A stretch of DNA of 64,000 nt from positions 7,549-71,548 of the forward strand of contig DAITPU010000001.1 in NCBI GenBank assembly GCA_036833455.1, read 5' to 3'. The stretch comes from a bacterium. Its GTDB lineage: Archaea; Nanobdellota; Nanobdellia; Pacearchaeales; GW2011-AR1. The notes below the pieces were generated by a model. That model made no database searches. It saw only the letters and a list, made by a program, of their open reading frames with translations, and was not told the origin of the DNA. Positions 1 to 59,600 of the stretch are shown in pieces. Numbering within the stretch: the first letter of the stretch is position 1; the number at the start of each line of letters is the position of its first letter. Position numbers and translations under genes: made by a program.

Positions 1-2900
1 TGCCGTCGTAGAATCATTCAAATCAAAAGGTAAATTCAAAACAGCCCAAGAGGTTCCATTCAACCTCCAATCTGTAATATTATAAATTAAATCTTCATCT
101 AAATCTGTTGAATTAGAAATATAAACACTCAAATTTTCAAAAGTAGTATTAGTTCCCGAAGAGGAATTTAAAATAACTATTGGAAAAGTTGGAGCGCTAT
201 TAACTTGTTCACCTAAGATAGTCAAATTAGAACTTAAAACTGAAGTTCCTTCCGAAGAAAAATTAGTTGGAGTTACCATTACTGACCAATTTTCTCCAAC
301 TGAAGTTTCTTGCGAAACAATTGTTTCGATTGATTTATTATTTAATCCAGCTTGATAAATAGCACTAATTTGTTCTGCTGAAAGTGCTTCATCAAATATC
401 ATTACTTCATCTATTGAACCATTAAAATAATTACCTGCTGCATTAAATGTAGCAAAAAGTAAATTATTGGTAGATTTCCCGACAGAAAAACTTTTACTTA
501 AAGAAAAAACATTACTTCCATCTAAATAACCTTCCCACTTACTTCCATTATAAGAATAAACTATATGGTGCCAATTTGTATCTGAAAGAGTTATTCCAGA
601 ACCAGTTCGAGGATTATCTCCTGTATAAACCCCAGAATAAAATTCAACTTGATTATTTACATACTCCCAAATTAAAGAATAAACATTATCTGTTCCAGCA
701 TCATTCCTTTTAGATAAAAGATATCTATTAGTTTGACTTAAATCGCTAGGTTTAATCCAAAGTGAAAAAGCAAAATTATTTGTTAAATTTAAAGTTCCAT
801 TATAAGGAACGGTAATATAATCCCCTCCATCAAAATTGTAACATCCTCCCACTTTACAATTTGAACTCCAAGTTGGTTTTGCAGTTGATGAAGCCAGAGT
901 TCCATTATTTCCATAAGTTGAATAATCTTTTGCCGTCGTAGAATCATTCAAATCAAAGGGCATATTCAAAACTGCCCAAGAGGTTCCATTTAATCTCCAA
1001 TCTGTAATAGTTGCATTCGTATCAGTTGAAGAAATATACGCCGTTAAATTTTCATTAGTAGTATTAGTTCCCGAAGAGGAATTTAGAATTACTGAATTTA
1101 TTATTGGATTTCTTACTAAATCCAAAATAGTCAAATTAGAACTTAAAACTGAAGTTCCTTCTAAACTTAAATCTGTGGGAGTGGATCTAACTGACCAATT
1201 TTCTCCAACTGAAGTTTCTTGCGAAACAATTGTTTCGATTGATTGATTATTTAATCCAGCTTGATAAATAGCACTAATTTGTTCTGCTGAAAGTGCTCTA
1301 TTGAAGATCATAAATTCATCAATTCTTCCTTTAAAATATTTTTCACCATTATTAGCTTGATCTGCCGCTCCTATTTGATGGCTTGTATAGGTTCCAGACC
1401 AATCAAGAGTAATATTTCCGATAGTATTATTTGCTACACGAGAACCATTAAAATAAATTTTCATTTCATTTCCATCATAAGTTACCACAAGATGATGCCA
1501 TTGATTAGTTGAAGGGAGAGAAGCCGGATTCCATGCACAAGAATATCTAGTAGTAGAACTATGTAAATCATAATATATCGTGTTTAAACTTCCCCAACTA
1601 CTTATTGCAATACCTCCATCATAATTGTTGTTAGTAAGATGTTGCCCCCCATAAAAACCAGGATAAGTGTTTTGAGACCAATTTGAAGAATTTATCCACA
1701 TCACAATTGAGTGAGGTCCTGTTTGTCTAGCTGAATCTGGAAGAGTTATTTTATCGTTACTTCCATCAAAACTATAACATCCTCCAACCTTACAATTTGA
1801 AACCCAGGTTGCTCCACTTACAGAACCATTATTACTCAATGTAGAATAATCTTTAGTTACACTAGAATTTTCTAAATCAAAGGGCATATTCATCGCTGCC
1901 CAAGAAGCACCGTTTACTCTCCAATCCGTAATCGTTGAATTTGAATTAGTTGAATTTATATATGCGGTTAAATTCTCATTAGTAGTATTAGTTCCCGAAG
2001 AGGAATTTAGAATTACTGAATTAACAGTAGGGATTCCTACAAAATTTTCATAAGGTAAAACATTTCCTGAATTGTAAAGAGTTTGAATTTCCGATAAACT
2101 TAACTCTCTATTCCAAATTGCCCATTCATCATAATCTATATTTATTACGGCCCCCCCTCCAAGCAAACCAAGATTTGCATTAACTGTAGTTGCACCGCTT
2201 GTAGTCCTATTATAAGCTGAAACTGCATTAACATAAAGTTTTACATGGCTTGAACTATTCATTGTAATAACCACATGATACCATGTGTCTGCAGAAAAAT
2301 TTACTGAAGATGAATATTGAACCCAAGTTCCACTTGGCCTATCAGTAACATAAAAAACATAATTAGCTCCATCCAATTTAGTTCCTACAAAAAAGTTTAG
2401 ATTAGCTGCATTATTTGCATATTGCCCCCAAAATGCTCCTGGATTAGAATTATTACTCCTAACCCAAAAACTATGTGTAAAAGCTGAAGTTCTACTCTGT
2501 AATGCCCCTAAAGCAAGTCCTTGGTCATTAGTATTTCTTCCTCTAATTCTTAAAGCATTATTTTCTTTTCCACTAATCCAACTATATGTAAAAATAGCAG
2601 TTCTATTATCTGAAGCATGACTATCATATGCAGTACTTCCACTTGATTCATCTAACTTCCAATAAGAAACTAATCCGTTAGTTAAATTATATGAAGGATC
2701 AACAGCCAAATCACTAACAACTCTACTCTCGTCGGCAAAACTAAAATTCAAAACAGCGTATCCTGCTATATTCATAAATGAACTAAACTCTCCTGTATCC
2801 AAACAAGAATAATTTTCAACAAAAAATTTCAAAGGCTTAACACTTTCATTTATTTCCGAATATTTTAAAATTTCTTCATTTTCAGTAATAATATACAAAT
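1..2900 (-). repeat. In-frame tandem DNA repeats of about 910-930 bp (at least 3 copies) inside the giant surface-protein gene
   Basis: Exact 27-mer tgccgtcgtagaatcattcaaatcaaa occurs at 1 and 931. The 44-mer ttctccaactgaagtttcttgcgaaacaattgtttcgattgatt occurs at 291 and 1201. tattagttcccgaagaggaattta occurs at about 150, 1062 and 1985. Each unit encodes one LamG-like module. Confidence 0.8.
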
Positions 2901-4644
2901 CATCAATTAAATTTTCCTCTCCACACTTCAAATTTAAAAATTCCATTTCATCTTCAGTTTCTAAATTATCCTTAGGAATTTCTTCAAAAAATGCATTAGG
3001 AGAATAAATTGTTAAATTTCCAACTCCAGTAGTATTAAAATAAACTTTCCAAAGATCTCCATCTTTCAAATATTCTAAAGGATTCAAAACAGTTATAGTA
3101 ATTTCAAAAGTTTGATTAGAAAGATGAGGTGCAATCCACTCAACATAATCATAAAGCCCGTTTCCATTTAAATCATAAAACTCGTAACTCTCAATATATT
3201 TCTCTTCTTCCACCCAATAAATCTTAAATTCTGTTCCTTCTCTAAATTCTAATTCTTTTGAAATTTCTGCAAAAACTAAAACATTTTCATAATGAATATT
3301 TTCCGGTCCAACAATTTTTACAATTTTTCCTTTAGAAGTTTCTTCTTCCAAAGAATAAGGAGCAGGAGTTTCATATTCAATAACAACTAATTCTTTAGTA
3401 TTGTCAAGAACTAACTCCAAAGAGTTCTCTCTTTCCAAAATTTCAAATTCTTCTCCGACAGAAAAACCCGTAAAAACAAAAATCTTAGAAAAGAAATTTT
3501 TAATTCCCTCAAAAAAACCCTCTCCAGATTCAGAAATAGAATATCCCGTTAAAAAACTTCTAGAAGTTTCACCTTTTTCTCTAAACATTTCTTGATTATA
3601 ATCTTCTAACTTGTCTTCTATCTTTTCTGCCTTCGTTCCAGTTTTAATTTCAATTTTTTCAGAGTTAATAGGAATTTCAACTTTAACTTTTGTAGAATTT
3701 ATTTCCTCTAAATTTATTTTTTTAACCCAACGAACAGGTTTTCCTAAAACAATATTTGAATTAAGAGTTTCAATACTTTCATTATTCAGACCAAAAATTT
3801 CTTCTTCCAAAAGAGTTTCATTTAATTCAGATTCATTTAAGTTTTCATCTAATTCAGTTTGATTTAAACTTTCATTAAGTTCGGTTTCATTTAGTTGAAA
3901 TTCTTCTAAAGTTTGATTTACTTCAGTTTGATTTAAATTTTCTTGAAAAGAACTTCCCCCAGAACTAAAATCAAAGTTATTTTCTGTTTCCTCTAAAGGT
4001 TTTTCAGGAATAAACTCTGAATCATTAATTGAAATATTTTCAAGAATCTCAATTTCTCCAGAATCATTTAAAATTTCATCTTCAAATCCACTCTCTTTCA
4101 TTTCTTGGTTATCTTCAGTAATATCTCCTTCTACTTTTTCTTGAGTACTCTCTCCTTCTACTCCTTGAAAAACTTCCTCAGAATCTTCCTCAGAAATTTG
4201 TTCTTCTAAGTCAAGATTAGGGTTTTCATCAGAAACTTCATCTGAAGTAATCTCTTCTTCTACATTCCCTTCTTCTGAATTAGAAAAAGATTCATCTGTT
4301 AAACTCTTACTTCCGGTAGATATCTCCCTTTCAGAAGAAACTCCTTCTGAATCTTCTACCATAAAACCAGTTAAAGAAGAATAACTTTTAGAAATAGAAT
4401 CAAAAATTTTTTCAAATCCCAATTTTTCTTTATCAAAAGAATTTTCTCCGTAAGAAATAAAAGAAAAAACTCCTAAAATCAGGATTACACTACATAAAAA
4501 AATTAAAAAGAAGGGAGTTTTTTTCTTGGGTTTATAATCTTTTAAATATTTAGAAACAATATTCCCCTCTGAATCTCTATAGCTTTCATAATAGTATGGT
4601 CCAAAAACTTTATCTCCTCTTTTAATATACCTTTTATACACCAT
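1..4644 (-). CDS. Giant secreted or surface protein, 3'-partial (more than 1540 aa in window). It has an N-terminal TM anchor, an acidic NETELNE-type low-complexity linker and at least 3 tandem LamG/concanavalin-like jelly-roll modules.
   Basis: Manual reverse-complement translation from ATG at 4644 (MVYKRYIKRGDKVFGPYYYESYRDSEGNIVSKYLKDYKPKKKTPFFLIFLCSVILILGVFSF...) reads without stops to the window start. Repeated modules contain W..HHLVVTYDGNEMKIYFNG...IDEFMIFNRALSAEQISAIYQAG, typical of the Laminin_G_3 / concanavalin-like fold. It is not in the ORF track because it runs off the edge. Confidence 0.75.
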   Translation of the reverse strand, partial: MVYKRYIKRGDKVFGPYYYESYRDSEGNIVSKYLKDYKPKKKTPFFLIFLCSVILILGVFSFISYGENSFDKEKLGFEKIFDSISKSYSSLTGFMVEDSEGVSSEREISTGSKSLTDESFSNSEEGNVEEEITSDEVSDENPNLDLEEQISEEDSEEVFQGVEGESTQEKVEGDITEDNQEMKESGFEDEILNDSGEIEILENISINDSEFIPEKPLEETENNFDFSSGGSSFQENLNQTEVNQTLEEFQLNETELNESLNQTELDENLNESELNETLLEEEIFGLNNESIETLNSNIVLGKPVRWVKKINLEEINSTKVKVEIPINSEKIEIKTGTKAEKIEDKLEDYNQEMFREKGETSRSFLTGYSISESGEGFFEGIKNFFSKIFVFTGFSVGEEFEILERENSLELVLDNTKELVVIEYETPAPYSLEEETSKGKIVKIVGPENIHYENVLVFAEISKELEFREGTEFKIYWVEEEKYIESYEFYDLNGNGLYDYVEWIAPHLSNQTFEITITVLNPLEYLKDGDLWKVYFNTTGVGNLTIYSPNAFFEEIPKDNLETEDEMEFLNLKCGEENLIDDLYIITENEEILKYSEINESVKPLKFFVENYSCLDTGEFSSFMNIAGYAVLNFSFADESRVVSDLAVDPSYNLTNGLVSYWKLDESSGSTAYDSHASDNRTAIFTYSWISGKENNALRIRGRNTNDQGLALGALQSRTSAFTHSFWVRSNNSNPGAFWGQYANNAANLNFFVGTKLDGANYVFYVTDRPSGTWVQYSSSVNFSADTWYHVVITMNSSSHVKLYVNAVSAYNRTTSGATTVNANLGLLGGGAVINIDYDEWAIWNRELSLSEIQTLYNSGNVLPYENFVGIPTVNSVILNSSSGTNTTNENLTAYINSTNSNSTITDWRVNGASWAAMNMPFDLENSSVTKDYSTLSNNGSVSGATWVSNCKVGGCYSFDGSNDKITLPDSARQTGPHSIVMWINSSNWSQNTYPGFYGGQHLTNNNYDGGIAISSWGSLNTIYYDLHSSTTRYSCAWNPASLPSTNQWHHLVVTYDGNEMKIYFNGSRVANNTIGNITLDWSGTYTSHQIGAADQANNGEKYFKGRIDEFMIFNRALSAEQISAIYQAGLNNQSIETIVSQETSVGENWSVRSTPTDLSLEGTSVLSSNLTILDLVRNPIINSVILNSSSGTNTTNENLTAYISSTDTNATITDWRLNGTSWAVLNMPFDLNDSTTAKDYSTYGNNGTLASSTAKPTWSSNCKVGGCYNFDGGDYITVPYNGTLNLTNNFAFSLWIKPSDLSQTNRYLLSKRNDAGTDNVYSLIWEYVNNQVEFYSGVYTGDNPRTGSGITLSDTNWHHIVYSYNGSKWEGYLDGSNVFSLSKSFSVGKSTNNLLFATFNAAGNYFNGSIDEVMIFDEALSAEQISAIYQAGLNNKSIETIVSQETSVGENWSVMVTPTNFSSEGTSVLSSNLTILGEQVNSAPTFPIVILNSSSGTNTTFENLSVYISNSTDLDEDLIYNITDWRLNGTSWAVLNLPFDLNDSTTA

Positions 4645-4719
4645 CTTTTTTCAAATAAATTAAGAAAAATGTATATTTAAACCTTATTCTTGTAGTGTAA
4701 TTACTTTATTGAAGATAAA

Positions 4720-5904
4720 TCACCTTGTAATAATTTCTAAAGAATCCCTATGTTTTAAAAGATAATCTTTGCCTAAGGCCATTTTTGTTTTTGCATTAAT
4801 TGCTTTTATAAAATTTTTACCAAAATCAGTGTGTAAAAAATAAGCAAAATCTAAAGCAGTCGAACCTTTTGGAAGTAAAAAACAATCTGGGAGTATATTC
4901 CCTTTTGAATCTCCCAATTTATTTGCAGAACCCGGAAAAATAGCCAAATAACCTAATAAATCAAAAACAACCCTATTCAAAATTTCCTGGATTCCTGTTC
5001 CAAATTCATACTTCTCTAAAACATCTCCTTTTATTTTATTTAATGCTTCTACTTGTTTTTCTCCTAAATCTTTCAAAACTTTAAACGCTCTTTCACCAGG
5101 AATATAATCTATTAAACCCGCCTTAGATGCTTGTCTAAGTGCAAGTTCAGAATCTGCAGAACAAGGAATAAAAATTAAATGAGGAAATTCTTTAATCACT
5201 CTTTCATAATTTTCTCTTCCAGAGGCAATATCTATTTTATTTGCAGCAACAATCATTGGTTTAGAAATATGCCTTAACTCCGTTGAAAAAACCTTTAATT
5301 GGTTTTCATTCCAATTAGAGCATCTTGGGGGAAGATTTAACTTTGAAAGAACTGCTTTAACTTGTTCTTCATTAACTTTTAAACCCGAAAATTGTCTTGC
5401 AATAGCTTCTGAAAGTTTTTGCCCTTCCATATCTACTTTTCTTGAAAAACCCGGCCAAACTTTCATTAAAATATTGTAATACCAATTAGTCAATTCTTCT
5501 TCTAAAAATTTAACATCTTCTGAAGGATTATGATTTTCAGTAGGTTTTCCTTCTAAATCTGTAGTTCCAGAAATATCTACAATATGTATAAAAGCGTCCG
5601 CTTGTCGAAGATCATCTAAAAATTTATTTCCTAATCCTTTTCCTTCCGAAGCCCCGGGAACTAATCCCGCAACATCCATTAAATCCACTGGAACAAATCT
5701 ATTTGAATTTAAACAAAATCCATGATTAGGATTGCACTTAACTCCAAAATCTTTATCGATGCATTCAACTTTAACATAACCAACACCATGGTTTGCTTTT
5801 ATAGTTGTAAAAGGATAAGAAGCAATTTCAACTTCTGCTAAAGTGGCTGCTTTAAAAAAAGTGCTCTTTCCAACTGAAGGTTTTCCAACTAATCCTAATA
5901 ACAT
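4720..5904 (-). CDS. OBG/HflX-superfamily GTPase (YchF/DRG-like) with a C-terminal TGS domain
   Basis: G1 GKPSVGKST is at the N-terminus and G4 is NKID. There is a large insertion between G3 and G4. The C-terminal TGS-like segment reads GSTALDFAYFLHTDFGKNFIKA. Confidence 0.7.
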   Translation of the reverse strand: MLLGLVGKPSVGKSTFFKAATLAEVEIASYPFTTIKANHGVGYVKVECIDKDFGVKCNPNHGFCLNSNRFVPVDLMDVAGLVPGASEGKGLGNKFLDDLRQADAFIHIVDISGTTDLEGKPTENHNPSEDVKFLEEELTNWYYNILMKVWPGFSRKVDMEGQKLSEAIARQFSGLKVNEEQVKAVLSKLNLPPRCSNWNENQLKVFSTELRHISKPMIVAANKIDIASGRENYERVIKEFPHLIFIPCSADSELALRQASKAGLIDYIPGERAFKVLKDLGEKQVEALNKIKGDVLEKYEFGTGIQEILNRVVFDLLGYLAIFPGSANKLGDSKGNILPDCFLLPKGSTALDFAYFLHTDFGKNFIKAINAKTKMALGKDYLLKHRDSLEIITR

Positions 5905-7388: not shown

Positions 7389-10300
7389 TTAACTTATTTT
7401 GATTTTTCCTCCGGAAGCTATATATAAAATTGAATCGATAGGGGGATATCCCATATTTTTTGTGTAAATAGTTGAATTGATCGTACAATTTCCTATTCCA
7501 GAAAAAAATAATTTATTCAAACCTAAATTCGTATTTAATGAAATTATACAAAAGTCCCCCATAGAAATATTCCAATCTCCAGAACCAGAATAAATACAAC
7601 TATCAAAGGAAAGTATTCTTTTTGTAGAACTATTAACCCAAGAAGAATTATAAGTTCCGTCGGAAGCTAAACAACTAAGAATCCAATCTTGACCTGCAGA
7701 AGTATTTTCACTAGATATATTTGCAACATTAACTTCAAAACTTTCAGAATATTCTCCAATATTTCCACTTAGATTTTCAATTCCATCCACATACCATTTA
7801 TAATGGTAGGTTAAATTCTGTTTTTCTATATCTGTCGCGTTACAATACCCTCTAAGAGTATCATTATAGTAAGAAAAAAGAGGTAAAATTAAAGAAGAAA
7901 CGATAAACGGATTTGGAGAATTTATCAAAACAGAATTTGATTGAACTCTATAATTATTATCAAAATCTTCATTAGTGGGAGTAACTCCGGCAATCCAAGT
8001 TTCACCTGGGGAAGTGTGAACATTCTCCAATATATCTAAATCTTTTGCTCCCATCCCGTACCAATATAATCTTTCAATTTCTGAAGGAGTTAAAGTCAAA
8101 TTATAAATTACAAATTCATCTAATTGACCAATAAAATACCCCCATCCTCCTGCATCTCCTCCTAAAGTCAAACTTGAAGAAGGGATTGTTCCCACCCAAC
8201 CAGATTCAACTGCCGAATTTTCTTGAACTCCATCTACATAAAGAGTAAAATTATTTTCTGGTTTATCATAAGTTAAGAGAGCATGATGCCAGTTTGTTAT
8301 TGAAGATCCATTACCATTAACTTGACTTGTATTTACTAAACTTGTTCCTAATAAACTAAATCTATCTGAAATTATAAATCTTATTTTTCCAGAACTAATT
8401 TCAAAATGAAATCCATCATATCCTCCATCATCACAAACTCCTTCCTCACACATTGCAAGAATTGTTCCAGAATCAGAATAGGTATTTATCCAAAAAGATA
8501 AACTAAAACTCTGGGCATACAAATCGAAATCATTCATAGTTGTATTTATGTAATCATTTCCATCAAAACTATAAGCTCCTCCAACCTTTCCTTCCTTAAC
8601 CCAAGTCGCTCCGTGTATACTTCCGTCGTATCCATTAAATCCATAATCCTTAACTGAAGAAGAATCATTCTTGTTAAAAGCGTATTTTATTATCTCAACA
8701 CCTCTTCCAGAGTTATCCCAATCACTAACATAAGAAACAGCATTTTCAGGATAACACTGACCAACTGAAGAACTTGTGTTTCCCGTATAAAAATTTGAAA
8801 TTTTAAGTGCATCAGTAGCAGAAATATTTCCACTATTATCCCAATCTCCGCAACATAAATGAACATTTTCATCATAACAAGATATTATTTCAACAAAAAT
8901 AGCTTGTGCTAAAAAAGAATCTTCACTATCTATCTTTCCATCTCCATTCAAATCTCCTTTCAACTGACCAGGACGACAAACAACTTCACAACTTGAACTA
9001 TCAGCATCTTCCAAATAATCAAAATGTAAAGTTAAATTATCCGTAGTAAAGTTGTAAGAGCTCGTAGTGTTTAAATAAGGAACTAAAGGGAAATAAATTC
9101 CTTTAACAGAACTATTCAACCAAGAAGAATTATCTTCTCCATCATATGCTAAACAACTTAAAATCCAGTTTTCACCTGAAGTTGTTAAAGAGCTAGAGAT
9201 ATTTGCAACATTTATCTCGGCTCCAGAAGCATGACCTCCCGCCGTAACTCCTGAACTATTTAAAACATTATTCTTATACCAAGAATAGTAATAAGTTAGC
9301 GTATCTCCATCGGCATCGGTTGCATTACAATATCCTTTAAGAGTATCAGAAGAATATCTTATCGAAGGTAAAATATTTGATTCAATAATAATTGGAGGTA
9401 CATTGCTTATAGTTAAAACAGAACTATTAACCCAAGAAGAATTTTCTAAAAAATCAGAAGCGAGGCAACTTAAAGTCCAATTCTCTTCTTTTGATGTGAT
9501 TGAACTTGAAACATTTGCAACATTTATTTCAGCTCCCGAAGAATAATTTCCTTCTTTTTTACCAGAAAGATTCAAACTTCCATTTTTATACCAAAGATAA
9601 TAATAGGTTAAATTATTATCCTCTAAATCACTTGCATTACAATATCCTTTAAGAGTATCATTCGTATAAGCTACGGAAGGAAATATTGTAGAATTTTCCA
9701 TCTCTGGAGCATTATTATAAATAAAAGGGTATGTGAGAGGATCCCCTTCATTCCAGATAAGTTCAAACTCTTCAAAATCCATAGAATAATTATCATAAAT
9801 TCCAAAATAATCTATCTTTGAACCATTTAACGAATAATCTTGTTCTGAAATTTCTTGATCTGGATTATTTATTCTTAACCCTATATGGTTTTTATAATTA
9901 GAATAATTTAAGGAATTATTCCCATTGTATTCCTGAGTTTCATTTAAAACATTTTCTTCATTAGCAATAAAAATTTTTCCAACCCCATAATCATCTCCAT
10001 AAGCTTCTCTAGAAAATCCAATTAGATTCCAAGTTCCCAATTGAACAGAATTTGTAGAAGTATAAATTCCGCTTTCCGGACCATCTGGATAAACTGCAGA
10101 TGAATTACCGCTGACTAACCTACCAGAAATAGTTCTATCTGTATTAATCCATAATCCAAAACCTACATTTAAAGAATCTTCTCCCTCTGAATTAAAACCA
10201 TCATCCAAAATCCAAATTTCTTTATCTAAAGATTCTGGAACATAAACCAAAGCTAAGTAACTAAAATGGGTTCCGGACATGACCCAAAAATTTTCTTGAC

Positions 10301-10622
10301 TTCCAAAATCCACATAATTTTCTCCATCAAATTGAATTGCCCCATTTACTAATCCTTCACTCCAAAGACTATCTTTTGTTAATTCTCCATTAAAATCTTC
10401 TTTTATTAAAGCATTAACTTCAATTCCTGAACTTTCATTAAATTCATAAAAAGCAACCAATTTGCTACTAGAATTCAAATAAAGAGCAGGATATGCCGGT
10501 AAATTTCTTTCCTCTCCAAAAATTCCAAAAAAACTTCCTCCATAAGAAGGATTAATTATAAAAAAAAATATTCCCAAGACAGAAATTATTCCTAAAACAA
10601 AAAGTAAAATTTTTTTTTTCAT
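7389..10622 (-). CDS. 1077-aa secreted surface protein with an N-terminal LamG-like domain, three PKD-like repeats, a canonical dockerin, a second LamG-like domain and a fourth PKD-like repeat
   Basis: It has a signal peptide. The dockerin has two Ca-binding loops, DLNGDGKIDSED and DWDNSGNISATD, each followed by a helix. The LamG-like motif is WHHALLTYDKPENNFTLYVDG...LDEFVIYNLTLTPSEIERLY. A roughly 80-aa unit YSSDTLKGYCNATD...NWILSCLA.D is repeated three times, with a fourth copy near the C-terminus. NxS/T sequons are very frequent. Confidence 0.7.
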   Translation of the reverse strand: MKKKILLFVLGIISVLGIFFFIINPSYGGSFFGIFGEERNLPAYPALYLNSSSKLVAFYEFNESSGIEVNALIKEDFNGELTKDSLWSEGLVNGAIQFDGENYVDFGSQENFWVMSGTHFSYLALVYVPESLDKEIWILDDGFNSEGEDSLNVGFGLWINTDRTISGRLVSGNSSAVYPDGPESGIYTSTNSVQLGTWNLIGFSREAYGDDYGVGKIFIANEENVLNETQEYNGNNSLNYSNYKNHIGLRINNPDQEISEQDYSLNGSKIDYFGIYDNYSMDFEEFELIWNEGDPLTYPFIYNNAPEMENSTIFPSVAYTNDTLKGYCNASDLEDNNLTYYYLWYKNGSLNLSGKKEGNYSSGAEINVANVSSSITSKEENWTLSCLASDFLENSSWVNSSVLTISNVPPIIIESNILPSIRYSSDTLKGYCNATDADGDTLTYYYSWYKNNVLNSSGVTAGGHASGAEINVANISSSLTTSGENWILSCLAYDGEDNSSWLNSSVKGIYFPLVPYLNTTSSYNFTTDNLTLHFDYLEDADSSSCEVVCRPGQLKGDLNGDGKIDSEDSFLAQAIFVEIISCYDENVHLCCGDWDNSGNISATDALKISNFYTGNTSSSVGQCYPENAVSYVSDWDNSGRGVEIIKYAFNKNDSSSVKDYGFNGYDGSIHGATWVKEGKVGGAYSFDGNDYINTTMNDFDLYAQSFSLSFWINTYSDSGTILAMCEEGVCDDGGYDGFHFEISSGKIRFIISDRFSLLGTSLVNTSQVNGNGSSITNWHHALLTYDKPENNFTLYVDGVQENSAVESGWVGTIPSSSLTLGGDAGGWGYFIGQLDEFVIYNLTLTPSEIERLYWYGMGAKDLDILENVHTSPGETWIAGVTPTNEDFDNNYRVQSNSVLINSPNPFIVSSLILPLFSYYNDTLRGYCNATDIEKQNLTYHYKWYVDGIENLSGNIGEYSESFEVNVANISSENTSAGQDWILSCLASDGTYNSSWVNSSTKRILSFDSCIYSGSGDWNISMGDFCIISLNTNLGLNKLFFSGIGNCTINSTIYTKNMGYPPIDSILYIASGGKIKIS

Positions 10623-13446: not shown

Positions 13447-13773
13447 ATGAAAAGAAGATTAAAAAAACTAAAAAATTCTTTAAAAAAAATTCCCTTCAGA
13501 AATAAAAAGAAATCTAAATTTGAGATATTCTTAAATAAAATAATTTATCTCGTAGGAATACTGGGACCAATAATGACTTTACCTCAAGTTTTGAAAATAT
13601 TCCTAGATAAAAATGCAGCAGGCGTTTCTGCAATATCTTGGGGATTTTATTTCTTATTTTCAGGAATATGGTTAATGTATGGAATAGTAAACAAAGAAAA
13701 ACCCATTATTGTAACTTATTCTTTTTGGGTATTATTTGATCTTTTAGTCTTTATAGGAGCTTTAATCTATTAA
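13447..13773 (+). CDS. SemiSWEET / PQ-loop sugar transporter (3-TM) with a lysine-rich N-terminal extension
   Basis: TLPQVLKIF, WGFYFLFSGIWLMYGIVNKEKPIIV and three predicted TM helices match the SemiSWEET triple-helix bundle (PQ motif, W..YG, PII). Confidence 0.65.
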   Translation: MKRRLKKLKNSLKKIPFRNKKKSKFEIFLNKIIYLVGILGPIMTLPQVLKIFLDKNAAGVSAISWGFYFLFSGIWLMYGIVNKEKPIIVTYSFWVLFDLLVFIGALIY

Positions 13774-13894
13774 TGATCCTGCTGAGATTTGAACTCAGGA
13801 CCTCTGGCTCTCTTAGAAAGCTCCAAGAGATAGCAACCCTAACGAATTACTTTCTTATAAGACCAGCGCTCTAACCAGGCTGAGCTACAGGATC
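13774..13894 (-). tRNA. tRNA-Ile (anticodon UAU) with a 47-48 nt intron 3' of the anticodon; CCA not encoded
   Basis: Manual cloverleaf on the minus strand reads GATCCTG-TA-GCTC-AGCCTGGTTA-GAGC-G-CTGGT-CTTATAA-[intron GAAAG..AAGAG]-GCCAG-AGGTC-CTGAG-TTCAAAT-CTCAG-CAGGATC-A. All stems pair. Confidence 0.7.
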
Positions 13895-17601: not shown

Positions 17602-18699
17602 ATGCATTATCATATAATCTTAACCGAAAGATGTAACTTACGTTGCAAATATTGCTATGAAAAATCTATGAAAGAATTCGAAAATGGTTTGGAAAAAAAA
17701 TGGAATTATGATGAAAATGTGCCTTTTGACACAGAAGTTCCAATTGAAAAATTAAAAAATTTCTTAAAATCAGAAGATACTTTAATATTTTACGGAGGAG
17801 AACCCTTAATAAAAATTGATAAAATAAAAGAAATTATAGATAATTTAAATTGTGAATTCGCCATGCAAACAAATGGAATTCTTTTAAATAAACTCCCAAT
17901 AAATTATCTAAATAAAATTAAAAAAATATTAATTTCGCTTGATGGAACTCCAGAAAGAACAAATCATAACAGAGGAAATGGAAAATACGAAATAATTTTA
18001 AAAAATATAAAAGAGATTAGAGAAAAAGGTTACAAAGGAGAAATTGTAGCAAGAATGACTCTTTCATATCCAGACATTTACGAACAAGCACTTCATCTCC
18101 TAAATCAACCAAAAATATTTAATTCTATACATTGGCAAATTGATGCTGGTTTTTACAAATTCGACTTTGATAAAGAAAAATTCACAAACTTTGTTGAAGA
18201 ATATAATGAATCTGTAAACAAACTTTTAAATTATTGGATAAAAGAAATGGAAAGAGGAAAAGTTTTGAAAATTTATCCATTTTTAGGAATATTTGACACG
18301 TTATATTATAATAAAAAATCTTTAATACAATGTGGATCTGGGCATTCAAATTTTACAATAAATACTTCTGGAAAAATTTCTGCATGCCCAATAATAAATT
18401 CGGTAAAAAATTTTTATTGCGGGGATATTTCAAATAAAAAAATAAAAAATTTAATTTTGAATGATAAAGAATGTGAAAAATGTGAATTTTTCAAAATATG
18501 TGGTGGGCGTTGTTTATATTGGCGTAGTGCAAAATTATGGCCTCCAGAAGGAGACAAATTAATATGCGAAACAATCAAAAATTTAATATTAAAAATAAAA
18601 GAAAAAATTCCTGAAATAAAAGATTTAATCGAAAAAAAGATAATCTCTGAAAAAGATTTTGAATTTGAGAGATATTTTGGACCTGAAATTATCCCTTAA
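17602..18699 (+). CDS. Radical SAM enzyme with a C-terminal SPASM/twitch auxiliary Fe-S domain
   Basis: CNLRCKYC is a CxxxCxxC motif at the N-terminus. The C-terminal Cys cluster is CGSGHS...SACP...CEKCEFFKICGGRCLYW. Confidence 0.75.
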   Translation: MHYHIILTERCNLRCKYCYEKSMKEFENGLEKKWNYDENVPFDTEVPIEKLKNFLKSEDTLIFYGGEPLIKIDKIKEIIDNLNCEFAMQTNGILLNKLPINYLNKIKKILISLDGTPERTNHNRGNGKYEIILKNIKEIREKGYKGEIVARMTLSYPDIYEQALHLLNQPKIFNSIHWQIDAGFYKFDFDKEKFTNFVEEYNESVNKLLNYWIKEMERGKVLKIYPFLGIFDTLYYNKKSLIQCGSGHSNFTINTSGKISACPIINSVKNFYCGDISNKKIKNLILNDKECEKCEFFKICGGRCLYWRSAKLWPPEGDKLICETIKNLILKIKEKIPEIKDLIEKKIISEKDFEFERYFGPEIIP

Positions 18700-21034: not shown

Positions 21035-22810
21035 ATGAATCCTGAACAAAACATTCCCGGAATGGATCTTAACACAAAATATTCTAAAAATCCTATTCCA
21101 AAACAAGAAGATCCAGAAGAAGCAAAAAAGAAATTTGAGAAAACAAAAAAAGAATTAGAAAAATTAAAAGCCTATATTTTAAAAAAATACAAATTTATTG
21201 AAGCCATAGGGGTTCTTCCCCCCCAAGCAATTCCAAAATTTATTGATGAAGAAGAAGTTCCAAAAGAATCAAAAGATCACGTTCATATTGAATTAATAAT
21301 TCAAGAAGATAAAATAAAAGAAATTCCCAAATTAAAGGAAGATTTAATAAAAGAAATAGAAAAAACTAAGGAAAAAATTTGGTTGCATATCTTTACTCCA
21401 AAAGAAATATGGGAAATTTGTTTTGATCAAAAATTTGAACTTTCGGGTGCAATAAGTATGGCTTATCCTCTTTATGATAAAGGAATTTTAGGAGCTTTAC
21501 GTGTAGCTGAAATTCATAAATCATTGGTACTTCAAAAATTCGATAAATATGTTGTTAGTTACGTAATTGGAGGAAGTTTAGTTAGAGGGGAGGCAGAAAA
21601 AACTTCAGATGTTGATGTGTTTGTTGTTATCAATGATACTGATGTTAAAAGAATGCCTAGAAGAGAACTTCTTGATAGATTAAGAGGAATGATTTACCAA
21701 TATGTTGCAGAAGCAACTCAAATTGCAGGAGTTGAAAATAAATTAGAACCCCAAATATACTTATTAACTGATTTTTGGGATGCAGTAAAAGATGCTCATC
21801 CTGTAATGTTTACTTTTATTAGAGATGGAGTTCCTTTATACGATCGAGGAACTTTTATGCCTTGGAAGGCACTTTTAAGAATGGGTAAACTTAAACCTTC
21901 TCCAGAAGCAATTGATATGTTTATGAGTATGGGGGACGGCGTTATTCCAAGAAGCAAAAAAACACTTCTATCTGAAATATTTACAAATATTTTCTGGGGT
22001 GTCACAACTCCTGCTCAAGCAATGGTTATGCTTAACGGATCTCCCCCTCCAAACGCAAAAAAAGAACTCGTGAGGGATTTCAAAAAACAATTTCTAGAAA
22101 CCAAAATGATTGAAAAAAAATATGTTGATTTCTTAGAAAAAGTTATTCAAACTTGGAGGGATTATGAACACGAAAAAATAAAAGAAATTTCAGGAGCTGA
22201 AATTGATAAACTCTTAAAACAAACTGAAGAATTTTTAAAAAGATTAAAAGAATTAAGAGAACAAATAGAAAAAAAATATCAAGGAGAAACAATAGAAAAA
22301 ATTTATCTGGACGTAATTGATTCTTTAAAAACACTTTTAGGCAAAAAATCCCAAACTAAACTAATAGAAGATTTTGAAGAAGAATATGTTAAAAAAGGTA
22401 AATTTAGCAAACAGCACTTAAGAATTTTAAAATCAATTCTCTCTTCAAGAGAGGATTATAAAAAAGGTAAAATGGACTCTCATAAAGCAGACAGAGCTAG
22501 AAGAGATGCAGATATTTTAATAAAAGATTTGGTTGAATTCAATCAAAGAAAAGAATTGATTCCTTTAGAAAAAGGGAAAATGAAATTGAGATTTAAAAAT
22601 AAAATAATTGAACTGATTCATGCAGATAAAAAGAGTTTTTTTATTGAAGGACAAAAAGTAAAGAAAATAGAAAAAGTTATTGAAGATTCTACATTAGAAG
22701 AATTGGATCAAGCTTTAGGAAAACAAAAAGAAAATGAGGAAGTAGAAATAAATCCAAAAGTTTTTGATATTCTTAGAAAAGCATTTGGAGAATTTGAAAT
22801 TATTTTATAA
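21035..22810 (+). CDS. 591-aa protein with a Pol-beta-superfamily nucleotidyltransferase motif, flanked by K/E-rich helical regions
   Basis: GGSLVRGEAEKTSDVDVFVV matches the hG[GS]x9-13DhD NTase core. No further recognisable domains. Confidence 0.45.
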   Translation: MNPEQNIPGMDLNTKYSKNPIPKQEDPEEAKKKFEKTKKELEKLKAYILKKYKFIEAIGVLPPQAIPKFIDEEEVPKESKDHVHIELIIQEDKIKEIPKLKEDLIKEIEKTKEKIWLHIFTPKEIWEICFDQKFELSGAISMAYPLYDKGILGALRVAEIHKSLVLQKFDKYVVSYVIGGSLVRGEAEKTSDVDVFVVINDTDVKRMPRRELLDRLRGMIYQYVAEATQIAGVENKLEPQIYLLTDFWDAVKDAHPVMFTFIRDGVPLYDRGTFMPWKALLRMGKLKPSPEAIDMFMSMGDGVIPRSKKTLLSEIFTNIFWGVTTPAQAMVMLNGSPPPNAKKELVRDFKKQFLETKMIEKKYVDFLEKVIQTWRDYEHEKIKEISGAEIDKLLKQTEEFLKRLKELREQIEKKYQGETIEKIYLDVIDSLKTLLGKKSQTKLIEDFEEEYVKKGKFSKQHLRILKSILSSREDYKKGKMDSHKADRARRDADILIKDLVEFNQRKELIPLEKGKMKLRFKNKIIELIHADKKSFFIEGQKVKKIEKVIEDSTLEELDQALGKQKENEEVEINPKVFDILRKAFGEFEIIL

Positions 22811-28584: not shown

Positions 28585-29703
28585 TTATTTTAATAAAATT
28601 TCTTTTCCGGTTTGTAAATCTTTTATGATGAATTTTTTCTTTTCTATTTCTTTTTTACCAACAAAGATTATTTTTCTTATCCCATATGAATTCGCATATT
28701 CCATTGCCTTGTTTATTTTTCCAAAATAAACATTTACATTTTTTCCTTGAGAACGTAATTTCTTAGCTATTTCAATTGATTTTTTATCTTCATCTAAACT
28801 TACAACAAGAATCTTATCTATATCAATAATAATATTAGTAACAGCCATAATTCTTTCAATAGAAAAAGAAATTCCTACTGAATCTACTCCTCCAACTTTA
28901 TAAGTTCCTCCTCCGCAGATAGTCTCCTTTATATCTGATTTTATTTCAAAAACATTTCCAGTATAATAACTTAGACCTCTTGCCAAAGAAGGTTGAAATA
29001 TAACTTCAAAACCATAGTATTTTGCAAATTTCTTTAATTCCTGTATTTCTTTGTAAGCAGGATATCTAGCAAAATAATTTTCTGGTTTCTTCATAATCTC
29101 AAGAATTCCTTCTGCATTGTATTTTTTTAAATTATCTTTAATCTCTTTCAGAGATAATTTATCTAACTTATCTATTTGACGAATTACTTCTAGTTTATCT
29201 TTTACTTCAAGCTCTTCTAAAATTTGATTTAATAATTCTCGGTTATTTACATAAATAATTGAATTGACCTTTAAAGCCTTTAATACATCATTAACTGCTG
29301 AAAGAATTTCTGCTTGATCCTCTATGCCTGCTCCAACTGTATCTATATCACATTGGGTAAATTGCCTAAACCTATTTGAACTTATAGGCTCATCTCTAAA
29401 AACTGGCCCGATTTGAAAACGTCTAAAAGGCAATTTCTGATTTTTAGCTATTCTTTTTAATTGAAATGTGAATTCGTAACGAAGAGCAAGCTCTCTGTTT
29501 CCCCTATCTTTTAATTTAAAAATTTCCGAAATAACATCATCTCCAGAATTTTCCCCTTTAACAAAATTTTCATATTCAATTATAGGAGTATCTGCTTCTT
29601 GAAAATTATAACGTTCAAATGTTTGCTTCGCTACTTCTCGTATAAAAGCCGCTTTCTCTGCTTCCTTCCCTAATTTATCTTTAAATCCTTTTACAGTTTC
29701 CAT
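28585..29703 (-). CDS. hisS: Histidyl-tRNA synthetase (compact, 372 aa)
   Basis: Motif 2 FRRFQIGPVFRDE...RFRQFTQCDIDTVG, motif 3 ICGGGTYKVGG...SIERI, and a C-terminal anticodon-binding alpha/beta domain. Confidence 0.85.
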   Translation of the reverse strand: METVKGFKDKLGKEAEKAAFIREVAKQTFERYNFQEADTPIIEYENFVKGENSGDDVISEIFKLKDRGNRELALRYEFTFQLKRIAKNQKLPFRRFQIGPVFRDEPISSNRFRQFTQCDIDTVGAGIEDQAEILSAVNDVLKALKVNSIIYVNNRELLNQILEELEVKDKLEVIRQIDKLDKLSLKEIKDNLKKYNAEGILEIMKKPENYFARYPAYKEIQELKKFAKYYGFEVIFQPSLARGLSYYTGNVFEIKSDIKETICGGGTYKVGGVDSVGISFSIERIMAVTNIIIDIDKILVVSLDEDKKSIEIAKKLRSQGKNVNVYFGKINKAMEYANSYGIRKIIFVGKKEIEKKKFIIKDLQTGKEILLK

Positions 29704-29744
29704 AGCTAACTAAAGATTAAGAGAGTTATAAAGTTTTTCAGAAA

Positions 29745-29817
29745 AGCGGAAGGAGGGAGTCGAACCCTCTTCTCACGGACCACAACCGTACGTCATAACC
29801 GTTAGACCACAACCGCC
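29745..29817 (-). tRNA. tRNA-His (anticodon GUG) with a genomically encoded G-1
   Basis: Cloverleaf reads G(-1)-GCGGTTG-TG-GTCT-AACGGTTA-TGAC-G-TACGG-TTGTGGT-CCGTG-AGAA-GAGGG-TTCGACT-CCCTC-CTTCCGC-U. The acceptor stem has two U.U mismatches (5-68, 6-67). Confidence 0.6.
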
Positions 29818-33967: not shown

Positions 33968-34113
33968 TCCATCCACCCAGATTCGAACTGGGAACCTCTC
34001 GGGCACTGCTATGCCTTTTAGTTCTTGACTTTTAGGGTTTCATCGTATATCTTACTAGACACTCCGCCTTAGGATATCTACAGCCAAGCGCTCTGCCATT
34101 GAGCTATGGATGG
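33968..34113 (-). tRNA. tRNA-Tyr (anticodon GUA) with the archaeal/eukaryal C1-G72 pair and an intron of about 74 nt
   Basis: Cloverleaf reads CCATCCA-TA-GCTC-AATGGCA-GAGC-G-CTTGG-CTGTAGA-[intron]-CCGAG-AGGTT-CCCAG-TTCGAAT-CTGGG-TGGATGG-A. Confidence 0.7.
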
Positions 34114-47287: not shown

Positions 47288-49024
47288 TTACTCTAAAACA
47301 GCCTTTATTCTCCTAACTCCAGAAGAAGAACTTTCTTCTTTTTTTATCTTAAATTTTCCCAATACTTTTATATTTTCCACATGAGGGCCAGTACAAATTT
47401 CCTTCGAAATTTTTCCAATAGTATACACAGAAACCTTATCTCCGTATTTTGTTTCAAAAACTCCTTCTGCTCCGTATTTTCTGGCTTCTGACAAAGACAT
47501 TTCTTCACGCTTTACTGGCAATTCTTTTCTAATATTTGAATTAACTTCTTCTTCAATTTTTTTTATTTCTTCATCTGTTAATTTCCTATCAAAATTAAAA
47601 TCCAATCTTAACCTTTCTGGAGTTATATTTGAACCCTTCTGATGAATTGAAGAATCATTTAAAATTTTCTTTAAAGCTGCTAAAAGAAGATGCGAAGCGG
47701 TATGCAATTTAGTTGTCTTTTCAGAATCATCTTGTAATCCAGATTTAAATTTTCCAACAGAAGCTGTTCTTGAAAGTTCTTGGTGTTTTTCTAACTCTTT
47801 TTCAAAATCAGAAATATTCACTCTTATATTTTTTTCTTTTGCTAATTCTTCTGTTATTTCTATTGGGAACCCATAAGATTGAAATAAAAGAAAAGTATTT
47901 TTTCCAGAAATTTCTTTTTTATCTTTAATTATTTTTTTGAATACATTCAATCCTCTTTCTAAAGTTAAATTAAACTTTTTTTCTTCCTGTTCCAATTCTT
48001 GTAAGATTTTATCTTTATTTTCTTCTAAATGTTTGTAATCCTTGTAAATTTCAAATACGGGATATGCCACTTTTTTAGTAAAATCTTCAAGTCCAATTAA
48101 TTTTCCATAACGGATAGCTCTACGAATTAACCTTCGTAAAATATATCCTTGTTCAGTATTACTTGGTCTAATTCCATCTGCAATTATAAAAATTGAAGCT
48201 TTGATGTGGTCTGCAATTATCCTCATTTCCCTCTTATTTTCAGAATATGATTTATTTGATAATTTTTCAATCTCCTTGATTATTGGTTTCCAAACTTCAG
48301 TAAGATAATTATCGTCAAATCCTTGAAGGATTGCAATTGTTCTTTCAACTCCTCCTCCAAAATCAATATTTTTTTGCTTAGCTTTTAGATAACCTTCCTT
48401 ATTTTTTACATATTCCATTAAAACATCGTTTCCTAATTCAACCCAATTTTTTTCATCTTTTGGATCAAAAATTTCTGGAGCAGGAGTATTTAATTTCCAG
48501 TAAAAAATCTCCGTATTTGGCCCACAAGGTCCTGTTTGTCCTGCAGGTCCCCACCAATTTTCTTCAAGCAAGACTATTCTTTTTTCTGGAATACCTAAAT
48601 TTTTCCAAATTTCAATAGATTCTAAATCTCTTGGAGAATTTTTATTGCCCTTAAAACAAGTAACTGCCAACTTATTAAGCGGAATTTTCAGAGTTTTCGT
48701 AAAAAATTCGAAAGTTAATTTTATGGCTTCAGATTTCCAATAATCCCCCAATGACCAATTACCCAACATTTCAAAAAAAGTGTGATGATATGCATCTCCT
48801 ACCTCCTCTATATCGACAGTTCTTATGCACTTCTGAACATTAACTAATCTCTTTCCTGATGGATGATTCTGCCCCAATAAATACGGAACAATTGGTTGCA
48901 TTCCTGCGATTATAAATAAGACCGTTGGATCATTTTCAGGAATTAAACTATAGTTAGGAATTTCCTCATGGCCTTTTGATTTAAAAAAATCTATGTACTT
49001 TTTTATTAATTCTTTTCTTTTCAT
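47288..49024 (-). CDS. alaS: Alanyl-tRNA synthetase, unusually short (578 aa, catalytic plus editing motifs, no extended C-terminal domain)
   Basis: HTFFEMLGNWSLGDYWK and NDPTVLFIIAGMQ are catalytic-core motifs. TASHLL (HxxxH) and CTGPHV (CxxxH) are editing motifs. Confidence 0.8.
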   Translation of the reverse strand: MKRKELIKKYIDFFKSKGHEEIPNYSLIPENDPTVLFIIAGMQPIVPYLLGQNHPSGKRLVNVQKCIRTVDIEEVGDAYHHTFFEMLGNWSLGDYWKSEAIKLTFEFFTKTLKIPLNKLAVTCFKGNKNSPRDLESIEIWKNLGIPEKRIVLLEENWWGPAGQTGPCGPNTEIFYWKLNTPAPEIFDPKDEKNWVELGNDVLMEYVKNKEGYLKAKQKNIDFGGGVERTIAILQGFDDNYLTEVWKPIIKEIEKLSNKSYSENKREMRIIADHIKASIFIIADGIRPSNTEQGYILRRLIRRAIRYGKLIGLEDFTKKVAYPVFEIYKDYKHLEENKDKILQELEQEEKKFNLTLERGLNVFKKIIKDKKEISGKNTFLLFQSYGFPIEITEELAKEKNIRVNISDFEKELEKHQELSRTASVGKFKSGLQDDSEKTTKLHTASHLLLAALKKILNDSSIHQKGSNITPERLRLDFNFDRKLTDEEIKKIEEEVNSNIRKELPVKREEMSLSEARKYGAEGVFETKYGDKVSVYTIGKISKEICTGPHVENIKVLGKFKIKKEESSSSGVRRIKAVLE

Positions 49025-56658: not shown

Positions 56659-59600
56659 TTAAATGGAAGAACACAGTTGACCTGCATAACCTGTGTTTGG
56701 ATAACCTACAAAATATCTCATTACTAAAAGAGAATCTGCAGAATTTATTGTTCCATCTCTATTAACATCCAAACAACAAATATTATTTGGAGTTGGAATA
56801 AGTTGAACAAAAACTTTGCTTATTAAAAGTGCATCTGCAGAATTTATTGCTCCATCTGCATTAGCATCTCCTATTAAAGATGAAGAAAAGCATTGTACTT
56901 CTGGGGAAAGTAAAGGATTATTTTTTTCATATTTTCCTGTATGTTGTAAATCATGCATAAACATTGGCCAATCTATCCTTGATTCATTATATAAAACACT
57001 TAAATTCCAAGCATAAATTTTAGTTTTGGGGTAGGAAGCTCCAAGAACTAAATCTAAAAAATCATCTTTATCTAAATCACTAACAATTAATCTATCTGAA
57101 GTTCCAAAAAAATAACCCGAAATTGGAGATTGAATAAAAGAACCAAATCTATCATATATTCCTAAACTAGGTCCAGAAACTATGATTTCTCTATAGTGGT
57201 CTCCATTTATATCTGCTATGATTGGGGAAGAATAACTAAAATCTCCTGTTTGAATTAAAGATTTATTAAAAATTAAATTCCCTTCATAATCAAAAGAATA
57301 AAGTATAAAATAAGGCTGTTGAATCTGTGAAACTAATGTTATTACTTCTAATTTTCCATCTCCACCTAAATCTCCTACTGAAGGACCTGAAGTAATTCCT
57401 CTGATATTTTCTTCAAAAGTATATGGCCACCCTGAAAAAATTGTTCCATTATAATTCCAAACATACAATTTAGAAAAATTTGGATCTGAAAAAATTCTCA
57501 AATCCCCCATAATAATCTCTAATTTTCCATCTCCATCTAAATCTCCTATTGCGGGAGAATTTAAAAAAGCATTTTCCGAATATTGAGGCCATCCATTAGC
57601 AATAGTCCCATTATGATGCCAAACATAAATAATACCATTATAATTTTCAAAAGAAGATGAATAATAGGGGAACCCCATTACAATTTCTGAATTTCCATCT
57701 CCATCTAAATCTCCTATTGCAGGATAGGAAATCTTATCCCACTGCATCATGAAATTTGGTTCTCCTATTTCTTGCGGCCATCCCGAAAGAGAATTACCAT
57801 AAATATCAAAAATATACACTACCTTATCGGTAGTTATAACAAAATCTCTTTTTCCATCATTATTAATATCAGCTAAGGATAAAGAAGAACTAAATTCTTC
57901 AGAATAAATACCAGAAAAATCCCAATAGTTAACAAGAGTTCCGTTATAACTAATAGCATAAATATAAATTCTGCCTAGTCCACTTATCAAAACTAAAACT
58001 TCTTCAATATTATCCCCGTTAATATCTTCTGAAGTCAATAATAAAGGACCATTACCCAAACTAGTATTTATCAAAAATGGCCAACCAGAAAGTGTTTCTC
58101 CTTCATAATTCAACAAATTTATTTGTTGATTTAATGAAGATCCGAAATAAGAATTAAAAAGTATTTCTTTATATCCATCTCTATTTAAATCTACAACAAC
58201 TGGCCAAATTTCACTTCTAATATTTGAATTTCCTTGAAATTCGACTTTTCTAGGCCATCCCTCTTTTAAGGTTAAATCTAAATAAATAGGAAAAGATATA
58301 GAAAAAGAATCAAAAAAACTACTAAAACTGAAAATCAAAAGATAATATCCTTGGTTGAAACCAGAAGTATTCCAAACTGCAAAAGAATCATTCAAAATAT
58401 TTATACCTTGATAAGAATGAGGGGTTGATCCAAAATAAGAAATATTCGAAAGATTATAATACGGATTTAAAATATTCCACTTAAGATTAATTTGATCTCC
58501 AATTCTATAAATTTCTGAAAAATCTGGATTAAGAATTTCTACGTTCTTTATTTTGAAAAATCCAAAATCTTTACTTTGAATAGAATTATTTCCATAAACA
58601 GATAATTTAAGATTATAAATTCCTTCTTTTAAAACATTGGGATCAAAATTAGAGCATAAAACACCTTCATCAACAACATTATTTCCAGAACATATTAAAT
58701 TCCAAGTATTGCTATCAGAAGAATAAAAAACAGAATAAGAATAAAAATCATCTCCTTTTGCACTACCCAAAATATTCATTTGGCCTGATGGAAGATAATC
58801 TATTTCATTTAAAGAAGCTATCAAAGGTTTACTAAAATTTAAAGAAGAACGAACATTTATTCTTCCTTGGCCTTGATCTTTAATTCCAGCTCCATTTAAA
58901 TTCTGTGCAGAATTTTTTAAAACCATTTTAATTTCTTCTGGAGACCAATCTGGATGAGCTTGCTTGATTAAAGCTACTGCTCCTGCAACATGGGGAGTAG
59001 CCATACTTGTTCCGGGAATTGAAGTGTGTTGATTATCAATACATTCTCTATCGCTCCAAGCATCATTCCATTGAGCTGCACAAATTCCTTGAGAACTAAA
59101 AAATCCATCTCCAGGAGCAACAACATCTGGTTTAGATAAGGACTTTATTTTTCCTTGAGCATCTTCCCAAAGAACCGGCCCTCTAGAAGAAAAGGACGCC
59201 ATTAAATCATTCTTATCCGAAGCACCTACACTAATTGCTTTTCTGGAAGTAGCAGGAGAACCTATAGGTCCATTCCAAAGTCCATCATTTCCTACAGCAA
59301 TTACTGCAATTACTCCTGCACTTACAACGTTATCTATAGCTTGACTAACAGGATCATCTGGATTTCCTTGACCTCCCAAACTCAAACTTATAATATCCAC
59401 ATAATCATTTTCATCTTCCAAGGGTATTCCATTGTTATTCAAATCTACTGATCTTTCAATAGCAGAAATAACATCGGAAAAATCTCCCCCTCCTGCCGAA
59501 CTTAAAACTTTAAAACCATATAATTTTGCATCTGGAGCAACACCTTTTAAAATTCCCTTTCCTGCGGCAATAGAAGCACAATGAGTTCCATGCCCATTAT

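Follow-up and report, generated by a model that had tools for sequence, protein, structure and literature searches.

The question raised by this locus is how an archaeon with an AT-rich genome reads the isoleucine codon AUA, and how it may do so without also reading AUG. The window, by which we mean the whole 64-kb stretch of DNA that was analysed, has a G+C content of 28-32% and is densely coding, and metagenome contigs as long as 237 kb contain the identical sequence. It carries archaeal genes for replication proteins and a chaperone (a group II chaperonin or thermosome, the small and large subunits of RFC, PolB and Fen1) as well as for S24e, Rpb7/RpoE, TFS, a diphthamide synthase, Trm5/TYW2, HisRS and AlaRS. 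The nearest named homologues of the YchF-type GTPase encoded in the window belong to MAGs described as "Nanoarchaeota archaeon" (81% identity), "Candidatus Nanoarchaeia archaeon" (78%) and "Candidatus Pacearchaeota archaeon" (78% and 74%), which places the host among the Pacearchaeota/Nanoarchaeota-like DPANN archaea.

AUA occurs 632 times amongst the 17,655 codons of 49 window ORFs (35.8 per 1000, or 3.6%), where it makes up 37% of the isoleucine codons and is the ninth commonest codon, which bears out the relevance to AUA decoding that had been claimed for the locus. AUG is present in the same ORFs at 15.1 per 1000 codons. The tRNA which reads AUA is here a heavily used one, and misreading of AUG by it would be costly.

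Large predicted surface or secreted proteins are also encoded in the window, namely an ORF of more than 1550 aa which runs off the window start (1-4650, minus strand), a 1077-aa protein with Laminin_G_3 and dockerin hits (7389-10622, minus strand) and a 1310-aa S8 subtilase in which FG-GAP repeats are combined with a dockerin domain (56659-60591, minus strand). The dockerin modules of this DPANN archaeon may relate to attachment to a host or to particles. A gene for a radical-SAM protein (17602-18699, plus strand) adjoins the thermosome gene.

The locus itself is confirmed as a tRNA-Ile gene in which T-A-T is encoded by the genome at positions 34-36 after splicing, and the coordinates, the loop CUUAUAA and the UAU anticodon given by a sequence-only reading of this DNA were recovered exactly by an Rfam match and a manual parse. 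The gene consists of the following features, BHB standing for bulge-helix-bulge.

13774..13894, minus strand: pre-tRNA-Ile(UAU) gene, complete (Rfam 58.4 bits, cloverleaf and BHB parse, homologue covariation)
13856..13894, minus strand: 5' exon (positions 1-37), with acceptor GAUCCUG, D arm GCUC/GAGC, stem CUGGU and loop CUUAUA
13857..13859, minus strand: anticodon U34 A35 U36, with U34 and A35 in the central BHB helix and U36 (together with A37) in bulge 1
13810..13855, minus strand: 46-nt BHB intron at 37/38, AGAAAGUAAUUCGUUAGGGUUGCUAUCUCUUGGAGCUUUCUAAGAG (manual parse)
13774..13809, minus strand: 3' exon (positions 38-73), with A38, GCCAG and AGGUC (Rfam and parse)
within 13774..13809, minus strand: 3' exon, continued, with T arm CUGAG-UUCAAAU-CUCAG, acceptor CAGGAUC and A73

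The minus strand at 13894..13774 is matched by the Rfam tRNA model RF00005 with a score of 58.4 bits, above the gathering score of 29 (E 4.8e-10 for the whole 64-kb window), with a 7-bp acceptor stem and the D, anticodon and T arms of the family all present. Its alignment holds a single 47-nt insertion, situated in the anticodon loop after CUUAUA and standing for one loop position. By manual parse the 121-nt pre-tRNA is divided into a 39-nt 5' exon, a 46-nt intron and a 36-nt 3' exon, so that the intron is slightly shorter than the 47-48 nt first read from it, and the mature tRNA is 75 nt long with its CCA not encoded. On the minus strand the 5' part runs GAUCCUG-UA-GCUC-AGCCUGGUUA-GAGC-G-CUGGU-CUUAUA up to the 46 nt of the intron, and the 3' part continues as A-GCCAG-AGGUC-CUGAG-UUCAAAU-CUCAG-CAGGAUC-A. 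Removal of the 46 nt leaves the 7-nt loop CUUAUAA, with A37 and A38, and the anticodon is therefore UAU; the discriminator is A73. A35, U36, A37 and A73 are all present in a tRNA whose body presumably resembles that of archaeal tRNA-Ile. A pattern for an intron-containing tRNA-Ile(UAU), which demanded the D arm, CTTATA, an intron and a complementary UAAG, matched the window once and its shuffles 0.00 times (100 shuffles).

The intron lies between positions 37 and 38, the canonical archaeal site, as had been read from the sequence, and its boundaries form a strict hBHBh' motif. Beneath a 5-bp anticodon stem (CUGGU/GCCAG in the precursor), C32-U33-U34-A35 pair with UAAG near the 3' end of the intron to give a central helix of 4 bp, which is flanked by two opposite bulges of 3 nt each, U36 A37|A on the 5' strand and AG|A38 on the 3' strand, with a 5-bp outer intron helix, GAAAG/CUUUC, beyond them. 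The cuts fall within the bulges, and cleavage after the second nucleotide of each takes out precisely the 46 nt at 13810-13855.

It is very probable that this is a functional gene for a minor isoleucine tRNA with an encoded UAU anticodon in a Pacearchaeota/Nanoarchaeota-like DPANN archaeon, and we propose the following pathway for it. The 121-nt transcript would fold as a cloverleaf in which C32-A35 pair with UAAG in a strict 3-4-3 bulge-helix-bulge; an archaeal splicing endonuclease would cut after A37 and before A38; and RtcB-type ligation would join the exons into a 75-nt tRNA with the loop CUUAUAA, to which CCA would be added later. IleRS would then charge the tRNA, which would read AUA, and the usual archaeal route, a tRNA-Ile2(CAU) modified with agmatidine by TiaS, would become unnecessary. 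The pathway starts from the gene, the fold, the intron position with its BHB, the covarying conservation and the codon usage observed here, and it draws on precedent for splicing, for charging with isoleucine, for independence from TiaS and for a modification of U34 that would keep the tRNA off AUG. The ORFs of the window that were scanned include neither an EndA nor an RtcB gene. A 591-aa protein with an NTP_transf_2 hit alone (21035-22810, plus strand) is a candidate CCA-adding enzyme or other RNA nucleotidyltransferase, and it is of relevance here because none of the inspected tRNA genes of the window encodes CCA.

There are six tRNA genes in the window: Ile-UAU, Val-UAC, Gly-GCC, His-GUG, Lys-CUU and Tyr-GUA. 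The tRNA-Tyr(GUA) gene (33968-34113, minus strand; 146 nt) is a second one with an intron, of about 74 nt and again at 37/38, for which a plausible BHB consists of a CUGU/GCAG helix with bulges AG|A and UG|C; its Rfam score is 49.7 bits, and ARAGORN finds nothing there. The tRNA-His(GUG) gene (29744-29817, minus strand) lies upstream of the co-oriented HisRS gene (28585-29703), at a distance of about 40 nt, the synthetase thus adjoining its cognate tRNA, and the ARAGORN call for it exceeds the Rfam match by 1 nt at each end. The AlaRS (47288-49024, minus strand) is only 578 aa long and comprises the catalytic core and the SAD domain, with nothing matched C-terminal of SAD, a brevity which we take to recall the shortened or split AlaRS of Nanoarchaeum.

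A search of a metagenome collection with a pattern which required the intron returned at least 120 loci. Among the matches listed there are 116 distinct sequences, and 50 of these (49 metagenomic sequences and that of the window) form one family, the members of which align end to end at 101-136 bits to a covariance model built from this same family. Their flanks have a G+C content of 27-40%, and the family is widespread in metagenomes from groundwater, lakes and sediments. Pairing is complete (100%) in the acceptor, D, anticodon and T stems (42-50 homologues), and the pairs changed on both sides number three in the acceptor stem, none in the D stem, three in the anticodon stem and five in the T stem. 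Stem pairing was the same on a structure-blind MAFFT alignment as on the model-fitted one, the observed covariation of the tRNA stems was reached in none of 500 shuffles, and pairing falls to 26-46% when the partner strands are slid out of register. As the sequences of the acceptor, anticodon and T stems were left free in the search pattern, their covariation argues independently for a tRNA that functions and is under selection. The pattern did fix the central BHB helix and the UAU anticodon, so that the 100% pairing of this helix among the relatives is not independent and the constancy of both proves nothing. The outer intron helix has an invariant first pair throughout the family, whilst pairing at its second position is 83%.

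The neighbourhood of the gene is also partly shared within the family. In at least 22 family loci (e.g., L141, L166, L190, L195, L213 and L216) a YchF gene lies 1-2 kb from the tRNA, and its product is 58-76% identical to the YchF of the window, where the gene (4720-5904, minus strand) lies about 8 kb from tRNA-Ile(UAU) with three genes in between. These encode proteins of 481 aa (no Pfam match), 1077 aa (the Laminin_G_3 and dockerin protein described above) and 875 aa (no Pfam match), and they look like an insertion into a conserved neighbourhood. A tRNA-Glu(UUC) gene, a frequent neighbour in the relatives, is absent from the window. In ten loci containing YchF (L247-L256, from Pacearchaeota ex4484_71, Nanoarchaeota GCA_020430505.1, Nanoarchaeia GCA_964416245.1 and other samples) no tRNA-Ile(UAU) was found near YchF within the fetched flanks.

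The other 60-odd matches among those listed fall into further groups, such as a marine group with a TGGTG stem and a CTGTT group, and these non-family matches were not counted as archaeal. The marine group (L183, L226, L145, L154 and others) has the anticodon stem UGGUG/CGCCA, the bulge 2 GCA and introns of 36-38 nt; its loci have dense coding flanks, including a TBP-domain protein and a DUF5906 protein, which are possibly giant-virus-like rather than archaeal. With at least 120 loci matched and 49 metagenomic relatives gathered in one family, the gene is a trait shared within its clade and is not rare there.

The intron is conserved in structure as well. Its length in the family is 46-47 nt in 30 of 50 members (range 37-50), and three further features are needed to describe its structure.

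13834..13849, minus strand: intron hairpin 1, UAAUUC-GUUA-GGGUUG (family pairing and covariation)
13822..13830, minus strand: internal "decoy" strand UCUCUUGGA, the 5' strand of an alternative hairpin (MFE fold and family covariation)
13809..13817, minus strand: 3' splice-site strand UCUAAGAGA, common to the BHB fold and the alternative hairpin

Hairpin 1 is 96-99% paired in the family, with all six of its pairs changed on both sides, and it carries a tetraloop which is mostly RNNA on a C-G closing pair. Three segments make up the splice-site strand UCUAAGAGA: the closing 2 nt of the outer intron helix, the UAAG that forms one side of the central BHB helix, and bulge 2 with its A38. When the window sequence is folded without constraints, the MFE structure pairs this strand with UCUCUUGGA over 9 bp, and this alternative hairpin and the BHB are mutually exclusive. 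The decoy strand is conserved and U-rich throughout the family, and its nucleotides follow those of the splice-site strand: where bulge 2 is AG the decoy partner is CU, where it is AA the partner is UU, CA is accompanied by UG, and GG by CU or UU, whilst two sequences with differing helix strands combine the bulge UG with the decoy CA. Where the first nucleotide of the splice-site strand is G or A in place of U, the second pair of the outer helix is lost and the decoy has C or U in place of A; where UAAG has become UAGG, for which U33 cannot compensate in the BHB, the decoy has C in place of U.

In an alignment-free comparison the mean duplex score was 6.85 for cognate strands as against 6.04 +/- 0.10 for strands permuted among the sequences (0 of 2000 permutations) and 4.35 +/- 0.15 with shuffled decoy regions. 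On the structure-blind alignment the alternative helix is 74.9% paired as against 69.5 +/- 0.7 when shuffled, figures to be read alongside the 66% at which U-rich and purine-rich strands pair even with a one-position slip, and its covariation is 0.268 as against 0.170 (0 of 500 shuffles), the shuffle tests being inflated by the relatedness of the family sequences. The model-fitted alignment gives 81% pairing for this helix, and six of its nine pairs are changed on both sides. Taken as sequence comparisons, these values suggest a signal of selection for the alternative hairpin which is moderate and not overwhelming. When the cloverleaf is imposed on the folding, 39 of the 50 members are predicted to favour the alternative fold over the BHB fold. 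The mean difference in predicted stability is 2.1 kcal/mol, and in the window sequence the BHB fold is the less stable by 7.1 kcal/mol. Among the other UAU-intron sequences in the matches listed, outside the family, no complementarity of the alternative-hairpin kind was found (mean z 0.31).

No Rfam family matches the intron and no box C/D motifs were seen in it by eye, and its identity as a box C/D or other known RNA was rejected on these grounds; a K-turn was rejected on sequence. The conserved structure, a tetraloop hairpin with a covarying second hairpin, is apparently a new and undescribed fold.

Two results speak against the reading of the locus as a tRNA-Ile gene: ARAGORN makes no call for it, and the unconstrained MFE fold differs from the cloverleaf with its BHB. 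What ARAGORN reports is a 93-nt "tRNA-Ser(gct)" at 13773-13865, a call which is repeated on an identical contig (L002). There is next to no likelihood, however, that the locus is a tRNA-Ser(GCU) gene instead of an intron-containing tRNA-Ile. The serine model has its 5' end within the anticodon stem and so leaves a perfect acceptor stem and D arm unused, the full-length model with the intron reaches 58.4 bits in Rfam, and the stems of the isoleucine model are 100% paired with compensatory changes in 50 homologues, at whose homologous site ARAGORN finds nothing in 49 of 49 relatives (L133-L246). The covariation of the isoleucine model refutes the call, which we judge to be the artefact of a predictor blind to introns; an ARAGORN "tRNA-Ile(gat)" in L209 likewise looked spurious. 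The predicted stability of the alternative fold, by 7.1 kcal/mol in the window and in 39 of 50 members, could also be taken to mean that the 3' splice site is buried by a stable hairpin and that the locus is a decaying pseudogene or an unspliced tRNA-like element. This is very improbable, as 50 diverged sequences keep the tRNA helices and the register of the BHB, with changes that compensate one another, AUA is among the major codons and has no other decoder in view, and the energy models ignore both the tertiary structure of the tRNA and the binding of the endonuclease.

A functional tRNA-Ile(UAU) could also coexist with TiaS and a tRNA-Ile2(CAU) encoded elsewhere in the genome, in which case decoding of AUA would be redundant and the UAU anticodon no mark of TiaS loss. 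No TiaS Pfam domain was found in 48 window ORFs scanned, a set which left out the surface-protein-like ORF of more than 1550 aa at the window start, and no CAU tRNA is present among the six tRNAs of the 64-kb window, which is a small part of the genome; absence within 64 kb says little about the rest. We nevertheless regard coexistence as unlikely, since the published cases, N. equitans, K. cryptofilum and ARMAN-2, -4 and -5, all pair UAU with the loss of TiaS and of the CAU tRNA-Ile (PMC3239211, PMC3575796), and no CAU tRNA was seen in about 330 kb of related loci, an incidental sample. The step from an encoded UAU to a genome lacking TiaS and tRNA-Ile2(CAU) is thus probably right but unproven, and it rests on precedent. 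A search of one literature library for work linking DPANN archaea with TiaS found nothing beyond PMC3239211, PMC6000648 and PMC3575796.

These precedents also place the gene. Of 167 archaeal genomes surveyed, those of N. equitans and K. cryptofilum alone had a tRNA-Ile(UAU) gene, and the korarchaeal one carries an intron (PMC6000648); archaea which lack tiaS and carry a TAT tDNA have been noted (PMC3575796). The ARMAN lineages have tRNA-Ile(UAU) and are missing tRNA-Ile(CAU) and TiaS, and the ARMAN-2 pre-tRNA-Ile(UAU) contains a 25-nt 37/38 intron with a strict hBHBh' motif which is cleaved in vitro by the endonuclease of that organism (PMC3239211). The gene described here resembles that of ARMAN-2 (Ca. 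Micrarchaeum) in its DPANN host, its UAU anticodon and its single 37/38 intron with a strict hBHBh', but differs in that the intron there is 25 nt long whereas here it is 46 nt with two conserved hairpins, and in that ARMAN-2 belongs to the Micrarchaeota whereas the present host is Pacearchaeota/Nanoarchaeota-like. With N. equitans and K. cryptofilum it shares the encoded UAU, and the intron with the korarchaeal gene; N. equitans is moreover placed in the broad DPANN/Nanoarchaeota grouping that also includes the nearest named relatives of the window. The genes of these two hyperthermophiles are GC-rich, however, and are set apart by description from the AT-rich, mesophilic family. The published ARMAN, Nanoarchaeum and Korarchaeum cases make the gene of the window another member of a published kind, found in the superphylum where it would be expected. 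The confinement of UAU to a few lineages thus holds insofar as the nearest relatives of the window are DPANN archaea, in which this anticodon was known, but the "only" of the sequence-only reading omits ARMAN (PMC3239211), and the value of the gene as a lineage marker is real but coarse.

Beyond the archaea, Mycoplasma mobile decodes AUA with a tRNA-Ile(UAU) and no modified cytidine, in an AT-rich reduced genome which has no C34-modifying enzyme (PMC3575796). The likeness lies in the reading of AUA by such a tRNA in an AT-rich setting; the differences are that M. mobile is a bacterium, that its gene has no intron, that U34 is unmodified and that IleRS and the ribosome are co-adapted. In yeast Pus1 forms psi34 and psi36 in tRNA-Ile(UAU) only while the intron is present; these modifications make A preferred to G in wobble pairing, and the separation of nucleus and cytoplasm ensures that modification comes before splicing (PMC4090602). 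The eukaryotic tRNA shares with the present one the UAU anticodon and a 37/38 intron whose 3' part pairs with the anticodon. The eukaryotic order is enforced by compartments, however, and any intron-dependent modification in the archaeon is pure hypothesis. We know of no archaeal orthologue of Pus1.

With this in mind we tentatively put forward, as a possibility that is more doubtful than probable, that the intron is not a passive spacer but a bistable RNA element in which the alternative hairpin acts as a functional switch. The proposal is drawn from the modelled folds: the decoy UCUCUUGGA would represent the 5' strand of the BHB (CUUA-bulge-GA) rewritten without its bulge and extended across bulge 2, and since the decoy copies this strand the precursor could toggle between two states. 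State 1 would be the splice-competent BHB, whilst in state 2 C32-A37 would be single-stranded and the 3' cut site buried. State 2 could then delay splicing until an intron-dependent modification of U34 and U36 had taken place, a kinetic trap that would serve as the compartment-free archaeal counterpart of the yeast order, nucleus then cytoplasm, in which Pus1 acts before splicing. It is equally possible that the hairpin would stabilise the excised, possibly circular, intron, or that it would merely guide folding. Were the switch to be real, it would explain how these archaea, presumably without TiaS, keep a UAU anticodon off AUG.

The gene accounts for the reading of the ninth commonest codon in this organism, and with it a large and environmentally widespread DPANN clade joins the short published list of archaea with tRNA-Ile(UAU). 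As ARAGORN miscalls the gene as tRNA-Ser and misses its 49 relatives, MAG annotations of this kind will seem to lack a decoder of Ile-AUA. For its lineage the gene is nothing unusual, and it is the conserved, possibly bistable intron which is the part worth following up; its covarying architecture offers a testable lead on how an archaeal UAU anticodon may avoid AUG.
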